This document shows positions 3,205 to 6,274 of a stretch of DNA of 64,000 nt, in pieces. The notes beneath the pieces were generated by a model, which saw only the letters and a list, made by a program, of their open reading frames with translations, was not told the origin of the DNA and did no database searches. The translations under genes were made by a program, and so were the position numbers. Where the stretch lies: the IMG/VR virus record IMGVR_UViG_3300035671_000001, positions 18,506-82,505 of that record, one strand, 5' to 3'. Every line of letters begins with the position of its first letter. Position 1 is the first letter of the stretch. This DNA is from a virus.

Positions 3205-3562
3205 CAGACGGACAGCATCATAATAGACGAGCGAGCCAAGATTAGTGAGAGCACCACGTCCGACGAGCGAGCCACGAAAGTTGAGAGCACCAAAGTGGCA
3301 GAGCGTAGCCAGAGAAAGTGAGAGCACCATTTTGAGCGAGCGAGCCATGTCCTGTGAGAGTACCAGACAAGACGAGCGTTAAGCCACTTGAAGCGAGAGT
3401 ACCAAAACGAGTGAGCGAGCCAAGCGCGAAGAGAGCACCATGCAAGTTGAGCGAGCCATGTCCCATGAGAGTACCAAAAATCAGGAGCGAGCCAAGCGAG
3501 CCGAGAGCACCAATAGTCAAGAGCGAGCCATAACTACAGTGAGTACCAGAACAGGAGAGCGA
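3118..3562 (+). ncRNA. TIGR-like dual-spacer guide array, upstream block (12 units)
   Basis: 36-nt period GAGCGAGCC-N9-GAGAGYACC-N9; spacers nearly always start with A (CCA motif). Confidence 0.9.
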
Positions 3563-3564
3563 AA

Positions 3565-4353
3565 ATGACAGACGTTGCAGCAGTCCAAGCCTTAACGCGT
3601 GATCTACGAAACGCCGCCGCGACAATGACGCGAGACGAAGCGCGATTCCTCGTTGATGCGTATTACATCATTCAAGACGATCGGAAGCGATCGGCCAACC
3701 AAGTGCGTTCTATGAAGGAGGAGCCACACGCCGTCCTTCAGTGGTTCTTCGATCAGAACGTCACGCTTGAAGGACAAATCAAGCGCGCCCTCGATTCGTA
3801 TTCCGACGCCAGCAAGATCGGCCTTTGGATGAAAGGAGTTTACGGAATCGGCCCGGTGATCGCGGCCGGGCTGCTCGCGCATATTGAGATCGACGACAGC
3901 ACTCCAACCGTGGGTCACATCTGGCGCTTTGCCGGACTTGATCCGACGGTGAAGTGGGAGAAGGGCCAGAAGCGGCCGTGGAATACTCAGCTCAAGACGC
4001 TGTGCTGGCACATCGGGCAGAGCTTCATGAAATTCTCAGGCCGCGACGAATGCCGCTATGGTAAGTTCTACCTTGCCCGGAAAAAGTTTGAAGTCGAGCG
4101 CAACGACTCAGGCGAGAACGCTGAGCTGGCGAAGACGCTGTTGCCGAAGTTCAACAAGAGCACCGACGCATACAAACATCTGCTCGGTGGGAAGCTGCCG
4201 CCGGCACAGATCGATGGGCGTGCACGTCGGTGGGCGGTGAAGCTTTTTCTCTCCCACATGCATGCTCAGTGGTTTAGATTGGAATTGGGCAAGGAGCCCC
4301 CCAAGCCATACGCGATTACGCAGCTCGGACATGGACACATGATTGAGCCATAG
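3565..4353 (+). CDS. tasA: TasA-like Nop-domain RNA-guided DNA-binding protein (related to the IS110 C-terminal domain, no nuclease)
   Basis: Predicted helical N-terminus; GIGPVIAAGLL and IWRFAGLDP motifs; ARRWAVKLFL; no DEDD/RuvC domain, no catalytic SG after GLDP, no HNH; embedded in a 36-nt dual-repeat array. Confidence 0.82.
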   Translation: MTDVAAVQALTRDLRNAAATMTRDEARFLVDAYYIIQDDRKRSANQVRSMKEEPHAVLQWFFDQNVTLEGQIKRALDSYSDASKIGLWMKGVYGIGPVIAAGLLAHIEIDDSTPTVGHIWRFAGLDPTVKWEKGQKRPWNTQLKTLCWHIGQSFMKFSGRDECRYGKFYLARKKFEVERNDSGENAELAKTLLPKFNKSTDAYKHLLGGKLPPAQIDGRARRWAVKLFLSHMHAQWFRLELGKEPPKPYAITQLGHGHMIEP

Positions 4354-6274
4354 GGTTTGAGAGCACCATCGAAGTCGAGCGAGCCACACGGACAGAGAGC
4401 ACCACGATCATGGAGCGAGCCACGGACCTAGAGAGCACCACATAGGCGGAGCGAGCCAGAACACTTGAGAGCATCACGCGTGAGGAGCGAGCCAGACGAG
4501 ACGAGAGCATCATCCTCGATGAGCGAGCCACTGCGGCTGACTGTACCTATAGGAACGAGCGAGCCATTCTACACGAGAGTACCAAGCGAGCCGAGCGTTT
4601 CAGCCATGTAGAACGACAGCATCAGAGCCGAAGAGCGAGCCATGGGAGATGAGAGCACCACGTTGACAAAGCAAGCCATGATCTTTGAGAGCACCAAGCG
4701 AGCCGAGCGTTAAGCCAAGGAGCAAGAGTGCACCACATTGTGCGAGCGAGCCAGAAAACGCGAGAGTACCAAGGCTAGAGAGCGAGCCAAACCGTAAGAG
4801 AGCACCACAAAAAGCGAGCGAGCCGAGGGAGCTGAGAGTACCATATATGAGGAGCGAGCCATAAAGCGCGAGAGCACCATCCTCGACGTGCGAGCCATGC
4901 TCACTGAGAGTACCAAAATGAGCGAGCGAGCCAGAGCCCAAGAGAGCACCATCTGCTCAGAGCGTAGCCAAATGAGCAGAGTCGTACCAACATAGGAGAG
5001 CGTAGCCAAGATCGACGAGCGTACCCTGTCGGAGGAGCGAGCCAAAGACGATGAGAGCACCATGGTGAATGAGCGTAGCCACAAGACAGGACAGCATCAT
5101 GCGATTTGAGCGAGCCACTTCCCAAGAGAGTACCAAGCGAGCCGTGCGAGCCATGGGTAGCGACAGCACCATATGAAGAGAGCGAGCCACCGTTGATGAG
5201 AGCGCCATGCCAAGCGAGCGAGCCACAGAACTTGCGAGTACCATGTCGTAGGAGCGAGCCAGCGGTAACGAGAGTACCATGGCGACGGAGCGAGTCATCG
5301 CCGCAGAGAGCACCACACGAAGTAAGCGAGCCAATGCGCGTCGAGAGTACCAAATAAGATGAGCGAGCCATGCAGGACGAGAGCACCATCACGCCAGAGC
5401 GCAGCCACAGCCACAGAGAGCACCATCGCTTAAGAGCGAGCCTTACCAGACGAGAGTACCCTACGATCAGAGCGAGCCAAGTCACAGGAGAGCACCAAGC
5501 AAGGAGAGCGAGCCAGGGCGAGAGAGAGCACCACTACGCGCGAGCGAGCCACGGCGATTGTGAGTACCACGAAAAATGAGCGAGCCTTGTAAGAGGAGTG
5601 CACCAAATCATATGAGCGAGCCTTCGGCCGGGTGAGTACCATTGAACATGAGCGAGCCGGAAAACGCGAGAGTACCAAAAAGCGTGAGCGAACCAATGAC
5701 GAAGAGAGTACCAAAAGGAATAAGTGAGCCAGGGTGTGAGAGAGTACCAAGCGGGCCGAGCGTAGCCATCGGCAGGGAGCGTGCCATATGATCAGAGCGC
5801 TAGCCACGTATGATGAGAGCACCAAGCGCAGTGAGCGAGCCAGTAGCCAAGGGAGCACCAAGTCGGCCGAGCGTTTCAGCCATGCTGATGGAGTTGCACC
5901 ACATCAGACGAGCGAGCCTTCCCGCCGGAGAGTACCAAGCAAGCTGAGTGAGCCGTGAAGTCTGAGAGCACCATATCGGCGGAGCGAGCCACGCCGAACG
6001 ACAGTACCAAACCCGCCGAGCGAGCCAACGCGATCGAGAGTACCAAGCTGACCGCGCGAGCCATCGACCGCGAGAGCACCATTGCGCATGAGCGAGCCAC
6101 GTCGATCGAGAGGACCAAACCACAAGAGCGAGCCAACCAGCGCGAGAGCACCAGATCGCCGGAGCGAGCCATACCGTTTGAGAGCACCACAGAAGCTGAG
6201 CGAGCCTGCGCAGTAGAGAGCACCAACGCAAGAGAGTGAGCCACCCACGATGAGAGTACCACGCCCCGTGAGCG
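4345..6274 (+). ncRNA. TIGR-like dual-spacer guide array, downstream block (53 units)
   Basis: Same alternating GAGCG(N0-4)AGCC / GAGAGYACC repeats with 9-nt variable spacers; parsed unit by unit. Confidence 0.92.

Follow-up and report, generated by a model that had tools for sequence, protein, structure and literature searches.

Guides of a viral TIGR array were found to match array DNA right beside them, and the repeat inside the matched site is usually altered. The array belongs to a 64,000-nucleotide stretch of phage DNA (hereafter the window; positions 18,506 to 82,505, G000:C1:18506-82505, of an 82.5-kb IMG/VR virus record), in which dual-repeat units of 36 nt, ~64 in number (window positions 3019-3564 and 4341-6269), lie on both sides of tasA, the gene for a TIGR-associated protein. 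About a tenth of the window guides match neighbouring array DNA. The chances seem to us evenly balanced that the modules described here are traces left when guides arose from neighbouring array DNA, the self-matched edge repeat having later been disrupted or scarred.

Results

Array architecture and target geometry

Each unit of the window array consists of an edge repeat (GAGCGAGCC), spacer A, a loop repeat (GAGAG[C/T]ACC) and spacer B, the spacers being 9 nt long and the period 36 nt. In most units, the CC that terminates either repeat is followed by A, which completes the CCA of box C. Its sequence identifies the locus as a dual-repeat TIGR-TasA system of a phage. At its centre, GAGCG^AGCC, the edge agrees with how TaTasR tigRNA1 ends (3′, ...UGCG) and begins (5′, AGCCA...; full sequence AGCCA-UGCAAGCCC-UGAAACCCA-UUGCCUUAG-UGCG; Table S3 in Faure et al, 2025, PMC12045711), and this point is the boundary between consecutive predicted tigRNAs. 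The optimised target strand of tigRNA1 is TGCAAGCCC-CTAAGGCAA (same table), and from the two sequences together it follows that a target equals spacer A plus the reverse complement of spacer B, written A+rc(B) below. The initial annotation of this DNA had assumed the same geometry. Spacer position 1 is a near-fixed A, which in most modules does not follow the source; the informative segment was therefore set to positions 2-9 of each spacer, which gives a 16-bp target with zero gap, and the mirror geometry served as comparison.

Published dual-repeat TIGR-TasA systems (PMC12045711; Xu et al, 2026, 10.64898/2026.09.09.750476) share with the window array the 36-nt succession of edge, spacer A, loop and spacer B, tigRNA ends of the form AGCC...GCG (as in TaTasR tigRNA1), A+rc(B) targets, a solo Nop-domain protein, arrays on both sides of its gene, and carriage by phages. 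The window array differs from them in its unusual length and in the proportion of edges with a central insertion (~16% versus 2.6% family-wide). The set published by Xu et al (2026) comprises 4,126 dual-repeat arrays with 65,635 tigRNAs.

Edge-copy modules in the window

Three units (modules 1-3; Table 1) combine two properties: spacer B is a copy of the edge, AAGCGAGCC, and spacer A is the reverse complement of the spacer A of the following unit, so that the guide reads the next junction of edge and spacer. The two spacers A match at 7/8 positions in module 1 (next spacer A ATGTAGAAC, 4606-4614) and at 6/8 in modules 2 and 3 (AAGGAGCAA, 4717-4725, and ATGGGTAGC, 5153-5161). The edge at the matched junction is altered in all three, to GAGCG-TTTC-AGCC (4593-4605), GAGCG-TTA-AGCC (4705-4716) and GTGCGAGCC (5144-5152; GTG replaces GAG), respectively. 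When repeats were normalised to consensus, the central 16-mers of these units (4566-4592, 4678-4704 and 5117-5143) matched the downstream junction at 15/16, 14/16 and 14/16, exactly as the initial annotation had claimed; against its real edge, the third reaches 13/16. The near-repeat spacer had been counted four times, and AAGCGAGCC was indeed found as spacer B at 4584, 4696 and 5135 and as spacer A at 3494. The unit starting with the latter (3494-3520; A-type variant) also behaved as described: its A+rc(B) target agrees with the next junction at 13/16, and the next edge (3521-3529) is intact. In the two possible decayed modules within 5722-5881, no spacer-A complementarity is left.

Reverse complementarity of at least 6/8 between spacers A of adjacent units is found in 3 of the 62 pairs of the window, and these are exactly the three units with AAGCGAGCC as spacer B; in an exact test, the chance of this coincidence is 1/37,820. 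In the repeat-normalised array, 6, 5 and 3 units match DNA within two units on either side at no fewer than 13, 14 and 15 of 16 positions, respectively. Shuffling the unit order, a control that the initial annotation had called for, gave means of 1.50, 0.45 and 0.21, and the observed counts were reached in 0 of 1,000 shuffles. The neighbour-matching guides it had noticed were confirmed, and all its numbers were reproduced.

Besides the modules, the guides of units 4888 (4897-4923) and 4924 (4933-4959) each match, at 15/16, the consensus form of the unit at 4960, whose edge (GAGCG-T-AGCC) and loop (GAGTCGTACC) are both altered, as had been reported, and whose spacer A is AAATGAGCA. Unit 4924 matches the real, un-normalised sequence at 14/16. 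Because edge and loop are alike, both guides also reach 14/16 in the mirror geometry, and this cluster cannot discriminate between geometries. The guide of unit 4377-4412 matches a site (4330-4345) composed of the tasA 3′ end and the start of the first edge.

Compared with the rest of the phage genome (both geometries, gaps of 0-3 nt, up to 2 mismatches), the guides matched at chance level only. For unit 3374 (A ACTTGAAGC, B AAAACGAGT), a guide match with 1 mismatch and a 2-nt gap was noted at 2578-2595 (− strand; CTTGAAGC-CG-ACTCGCTT), inside the open reading frame 2113-3204 and ~800 nt upstream of the unit; this match may be due to chance, as ~1 such match is expected over all geometries and gaps tried.

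Table 1. Features of the TIGR locus (window positions).
Feature	Position	Strand	Description
Upstream TIGR array	3019-3564	+	~11 clear 36-nt units, clear from 3157; degenerate repeat-like pieces from 3019
A-type variant	3485-3538	+	spacer A AAGCGAGCC 3494-3502; spacer B AATAGTCAA 3512-3520; next spacer A ATAACTACA
tasA	3565-4353	+	262-amino-acid Nop-domain TIGR-associated protein without nuclease domain
Unit 4377-4412	region 4330-4412	+	spacer A ACACGGACA, spacer B ACGATCATG; A+rc(B) 16-mer 14/16 to 4330-4345
Downstream TIGR array	4341-6269	+	~53 units; first edge GATTGAGCC degenerate, within last tasA codons
Module 1	4557-4614	+	edge 4557-4565; spacer A ATTCTACAC 4566-4574; loop 4575-4583; spacer B AAGCGAGCC 4584-4592
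Module 2	4669-4725	+	spacer A ATGATCTTT 4678-4686; spacer B AAGCGAGCC 4696-4704
Three-unit cluster	4888-4997	+	guides of units 4888 and 4924 match unit at 4960
Module 3	5108-5161	+	spacer A ACTTCCCAA 5117-5125; spacer B AAGCGAGCC 5135-5143
Possible decayed module	within 5722-5881	+	spacer B AAGCGGGCC 5749-5757, then GAGCG-T-AGCC 5758-5767
Possible decayed module	within 5722-5881	+	spacer B AAGTCGGCC 5860-5868, then GAGCG-TTTC-AGCC 5869-5881
Insertion edges	3301, 3374, 4593, 4705, 4960, 4998, 5071, 5397, 5758, 5869		insertion at GAGCG^AGCC

Recurrence of the modules in other phages

A pattern scan of IMG/VR yielded more than 114 viral stretches with the same repeats; 117 arrays (designated here by L numbers) were parsed into 1,986 units (1,719 of them unique), and the family-wide tests were run on these. 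In L065, spacer A GATCTTCTT and spacer B AAGCGAGCC precede the edge GAGCG-TC-AGCC and the next spacer A AAGAAGATC, the reverse complement match being 9/9; in L030, the corresponding elements are TTTGTGGAT, AAGCGAGCC, GAGCG-TT-AGCC and ATCCACAAC. Both guides match their junction at 16/16 once the insertion (TC in L065) is removed. In a second module of L030 (AACTGAAGT, AAGCAAGCC, GAGCG-TC-AGCC and ACTTGCAGC) the complement contains one inserted G, and L052 holds a decayed module. The L065 and L030 modules sit in spacer contexts unrelated to those of the window, and no two modules share a spacer pair.

With edge insertions removed, neighbour matches of at least 14/16 number 8 family-wide in the A+rc(B) geometry versus 0 in the mirror geometry, whereas distant units of the same arrays lead to expectations of ~1 and ~0.5, respectively. 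Spacers A of adjacent units are reverse complements (at least 6/8) in 10 of 1,501 pairs, and 5 of these come from the 8 pairs in which spacer B is edge-like. General complementarity of neighbouring spacers was not detected family-wide, the counts being those expected from distant units. As ordinary neighbours show no excess, the modules are a special class of unit rather than a general property of arrays.

Local matches of other shapes also occur. The first fully parsed unit of L064 matches its leader at 14/16; unit L005@2083 matches, at another phase, a stretch of edge, spacer and loop in the unit upstream of it; and unit L052@698 has a loop-like spacer B and a spacer A complementary to the next spacer B, the loop that it would match being heavily altered. 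Throughout the window and the family, matches are confined to a distance of one or two units. Scans of IMG/VR for the tandem edge signature returned, besides the window, only L030, L065 and L052, and a scan of 185,579 prokaryote genomes returned none within an array; a scan for the A-type arrangement added L017/L057 and L213/L214.

Spacers common to the window and other arrays are at chance level. Spacer A of module 3, ACTTCCCAA, is also a spacer A in the array of a phage with a 68%-identical TasA (L001:6165-6173; L108), in a unit with a different spacer B (AGACAGCCA); given the number of comparisons, this recurrence may be chance. The recurrence of ACTTCCCAA and TGATCTTT elsewhere had been considered as a sign of the direction of copying, a reading that was withdrawn after the comparisons had been counted.

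Some features of the related arrays stand on their own. At spacer position 1, GAGCC, the five bases with which the edge closes, is ~fourfold over-represented as a spacer start (~115 arrays; for example GAGCCGAAG in L005, and AGAGCCGAA at 4624 and AGAGCCCAA at 4933 in the window). At L065:1921-1997, two adjacent units lie between three insertion-bearing edges; spacer A of one is edge-like (AAGCTAGCC), that of the next (ACTCGCTCG) is the reverse complement of the edge, and the second guide matches its own spacer B and the following edge with a 1-nt overlap. The related arrays L030 (6583-7630) and L096 (− strand, 3724-4742) share 21 spacer 8-mers (~ten units) in partly different order, with one shared unit duplicated in L096 and blocks of unshared units interspersed between the shared ones, from which it follows that in these arrays whole 36-nt units are gained, lost and moved during evolution.

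Association with altered edges

All 8 strongly edge-like spacers B of the family are followed by an altered edge. Spacers B that resemble the edge at 6/8 or better stand before 8 of 41 insertion edges versus 7 of 1,524 normal edges (Fisher p = 6e-10), which bears out the association of junction-targeting units with non-consensus repeats for which the initial annotation had suggested a test. In the modules, the usual alteration is an insertion of 1-4 nt at GAGCG^AGCC. Among insertions, pyrimidines predominate and the same bases recur (TC six times, TT four times), and two long forms occur twice each in the window (GAGCGTTAAGCC at 3374 and 4705; GAGCGTTTCAGCC at 4593 and 5869). Insertion edges and variant loops showed no significant association (p = 0.13).

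Two origins of the interruption come into question: selection for the loss of self-binding, or a junction scar from the making of the unit. Consistent with a scar, the two youngest modules depart from a perfect self-match by the insertion alone, inserted bases recur, insertion edges also exist without edge-copy guides, and both informative insertion edges in the comparison of L030 with L096 lie at synteny breakpoints (p ~0.03), which fits unit turnover at the edge centre. Consistent with selected escape, the non-canonical matches all have about two mismatches, and the edge centre may be the sole position of the repeat that tolerates change. The earlier proposal that targeted junctions are mutated for self-protection therefore stands with respect to the association, while self-protection itself is one of these two options.

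The locus and its TasA protein

The open reading frame at 3565-4353 appears to encode a Tas protein of the nuclease-less TasA kind. Its product matches phrog_4285 (E = 2.5e-44) and, among Pfam families, only weakly PF02371 (E = 6e-4, just under the cut-off). Residues 37-173 align with residues 125-260 of TasR (9mty; E = 1.5e-10), and residues 71-173 with residues 123-225 of TasH (21kl; E = 5.8e-7); as these alignments cover the Nop core alone, the N-terminal nuclease part is absent. The Pfam search returned no nuclease family, and neither RuvC nor HNH is fused to the Nop core. To the IS621 and ISCro4 transposases, the Nop-like part alone aligns, and weakly so (E = 0.017 and 0.6). The C-terminus (...PKPYAITQLGHGHMIEP) contains Y and H, which may belong to a loop of the Y/H type; in Tas proteins, a C-terminal Y/H loop processes the precursor (Xu et al, 2026, 10.64898/2026.09.09.750476). 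Homologues of TasA number 5,867 at E ≤ 1e-5. One of them (P0061, 66% identical) is found in a genome record of Paraburkholderia sp., where it is annotated as a transposase, and is a possible lead to the host of this phage group.

The upstream array overlaps the 3′ end of the open reading frame 2113-3204 (363 amino acids), which matches phrog_22215 (function unknown); within this overlap (3019-3156) lie the degenerate edge- and loop-like pieces GAGAACACC, GAGCGAGCG, AAGCGAGCC and, again, GAGAACACC. A gene for a DNA helicase is located downstream of the array (7057-8706). The same 19-nt string occurs near both ends of the record (G000 ~90 and ~82459; window −18416 and 63954), which points to overlapping termini and hence to a genome that is circular or terminally redundant, though the record is classed as linear.

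Discussion

A proposed origin of guides in adjacent array DNA

That the modules record the genesis of guides from adjacent array DNA is the account we favour. A minority of units would then have been written from the array DNA beside them rather than from foreign DNA: a 16-bp duplex, at most one or two units (~70 bp) away, would be turned into a guide pair, positions 2-9 of spacer A being the 5′ half of one strand and positions 2-9 of spacer B the 5′ half of the other, which is the very relation of a tigRNA to its DNA target. The commonest source would be the edge plus the next spacer A, which would yield an edge copy as spacer B and the reverse complement of the next spacer A as spacer A. With such a guide, the TasA ribonucleoprotein would bind its own array immediately downstream, and it is this matched edge that is found interrupted at its centre, GAGCG^AGCC.

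Four features favour acquisition: the locality of the matches, their zero-gap A+rc(B) geometry, their recurrence with different spacers, and the matches to unique flanking DNA. Moreover, inversion is limited to the 8-nt spacers and does not extend to the repeats on either side; such units can therefore not be made by slippage, gene conversion or fold-back copying. Repeat slippage was rejected on this ground and because of the matches to unique DNA (unit 4377 to the tasA 3′ end, L064 to its leader, L005@2083 to the unit upstream of it at another phase). Of the two readings offered by the initial annotation, fossils of spacer acquisition that captured neighbouring DNA is thus the one we prefer; that acquisition took place, that the array was the source and the guide the copy, and that the insertions arose afterwards, we infer from the sequence relations.

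A more specific version, to which we give rather less than even credence, is that the modules are direct footprints of TIGR adaptation, in which a 16-bp duplex in cis supplies 8 nt per strand and units are joined at GAGCG^AGCC, sometimes leaving 1-4 mostly pyrimidine nucleotides behind. This joining point would also be the site at which a Tas nuclease nicks a target that has the edge as its spacer-B half. The coincidence is only a lead, because the published statements on the cut site ("3' of the nucleotide opposite base 5" and "8-nt 3' overhang") are, by our arithmetic, mutually inconsistent, and it depends on the overhang statement. In unit 4924, the insertion is off the predicted nick.

Several observations weigh against guide genesis from neighbouring DNA. 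Instances are few (~6 canonical modules and ~7 other local matches among ~1,700 units), and 6 of the ~13 local matches share one phase and strand, which random local capture does not predict unless survivorship was very uneven. In the un-normalised window sequence, the neighbour excess is modest (2 units at 14/16 or better versus 0.12 expected). The edge-copy spacers of the window are perfect at 32/32 sites while their partner spacers diverged; by our own estimate, ~4 changes would be expected in the edge copies (p ~0.02), which hints at constraint or homogenisation rather than neutral fossils. In the A-type cases of L017/L057 and L213/L214, the next edge is intact and complementarity is absent. 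The sole run that contains the phage, which is its source and is available as contigs (one spans 2900-5988 and shows no variants), yielded neither an intact-junction nor an empty-site allele. Finally, no spacer-writing enzyme was identified, and TasA itself is without a nuclease.

Alternative explanations

Nuclease-less TasA represses transcription in an RNA-guided manner, its complexes binding DNA and blocking transcription (Xu et al, 2026, 10.64898/2026.09.09.750476). The guides might hence be kept so that TasA binds its own array or the boundary between tasA and array, throttling downstream guides, with the altered edges tuning the binding. Besides the repressor activity, the perfectly kept edge-copy spacers of the window and the 14/16 boundary matches of unit 4377 and the L064 unit speak for such self-regulation, and autoregulation is possible for the boundary-matching guides. 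We nevertheless regard it as a rather doubtful explanation of the modules. A match to the leader or array boundary of at least 13/16 is present in only 3 of 94 array starts and is not conserved; most arrays, including the related L096, have no module; complementarity is down to 6/8 in the window; and half of the spacer-B pairing is lost when 2-4 nt are inserted, broken targets being at odds with a regulatory role.

It is unlikely that the modules act as RNA elements, that is, that the complementary spacers A form a hairpin in the precursor (its loop consisting of the loop repeat and two tandem edges) for processing, stability or termination, with tandem edge and insertion both belonging to the element. 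Perfect stems of 8-9 bp are predicted for L065 and L030, and pyrimidine-rich insertions recur; however, fold energies are ordinary (z −1.3 to +0.9), shuffles fold as well as the three window modules, the decay of stems is not accompanied by compensatory changes, a U-tract is missing behind the stem, and the local matches at other phases cannot make this hairpin.

The initial annotation had also proposed anti-TIGR or selfish guides, in which an edge copy as spacer B, paired with the complement of a spacer, attacks or homes into the arrays of other phages while the own junction is protected by an insertion. Because the edge is common to the more than 114 viral contigs and the 5,867 TasA homologues, an edge-copy half-guide would fit many arrays, and own junctions are altered in 8/8 cases. 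Even so, this idea found no support and appears distinctly improbable: in every module the matching spacer sits in the adjacent unit in cis and is a different one, the corresponding spacer A occurs at 8/8 behind an edge in none of ~115 other arrays, the pattern scans of IMG/VR and 185,579 genomes returned no further carriers, and TasA, to go by its domain content, should be unable to cut DNA. Chance and low complexity (edge-like spacers arising by slippage or gene conversion from repeats, other matches being post hoc) can draw on the over-represented GAGCC-start spacers and on the mirror-geometry matches of units 4888 and 4924, but are scarcely credible in view of the coincidence test, the shuffle control, the 16/16 matches in independent arrays, family statistics that hold, and the inability of slippage to invert a spacer alone.

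Relation to known systems

Guides written from adjacent array DNA would have a counterpart in CRISPR systems, where self-targeting spacers with mutated targets are known and naive adaptation has protospacer hotspots close to the array. Likeness extends to guides drawn from own DNA, to the usual disruption of the matched site and to a capture bias near the array; as there, the guide matches own DNA in its true geometry, and the matched site is more often disrupted than unmatched ones. Here, in contrast, the source lies within ~70 bp of the new unit, its halves are written in opposite orientation on either side of the loop repeat, and the effector is predicted not to cut DNA. We know of no Cas1-Cas2-like machinery for TIGR. 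CRISPR systems also have autoregulatory guides (the long-form tracrRNA, Cas-regulating crRNA-like RNAs), which are conserved and target promoters. These resemble the modules in steering an effector to its own locus, whereas the modules are sporadic, differ between arrays and have broken targets.

The donor-binding loop of the IS110 bridge RNA (PMC12045711) is similar in its related RNA-binding domain, in a guide split over two strands and in the recognition of its own junction. Recombination of the IS110 type was considered and rejected, as TasA is without DEDD/RuvC-like and Tnp catalytic domains, and neither an excised or circular form nor a pairing partner at a target site was seen.

Significance for TIGR biology

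The TIGR-TasA system itself is already known; neither PMC12045711 nor 10.64898/2026.09.09.750476 describes neighbour-matching guides. Both state that TIGR spacer acquisition is unknown, and a full-text literature search returned no paper on TIGR spacer acquisition or self-matching guides. The modules are a first sequence clue to how TIGR arrays gain guides, in that several unrelated phages show a guide right next to its putative source, with the two strands used as targeting requires. To our knowledge, no TIGR adaptation proteins have been described, and natural targets can almost never be identified because the spacers are so short.

For the TasA family of the window, the modules fix the effective guide length at 8+8 nt without a gap, and they indicate that one contiguous duplex can supply both spacers of a pair. 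They also suggest that either the joining of units or the breaking of self-matches takes place at the centre of the edge repeat. The splitting of the guide has been speculated to guard arrays from self-targeting (PMC12045711), a protection that an edge-copying spacer defeats. If the modules are indeed footprints of adaptation, they would provide the first rules of TIGR array growth: protospacer size, strand logic and point of integration.

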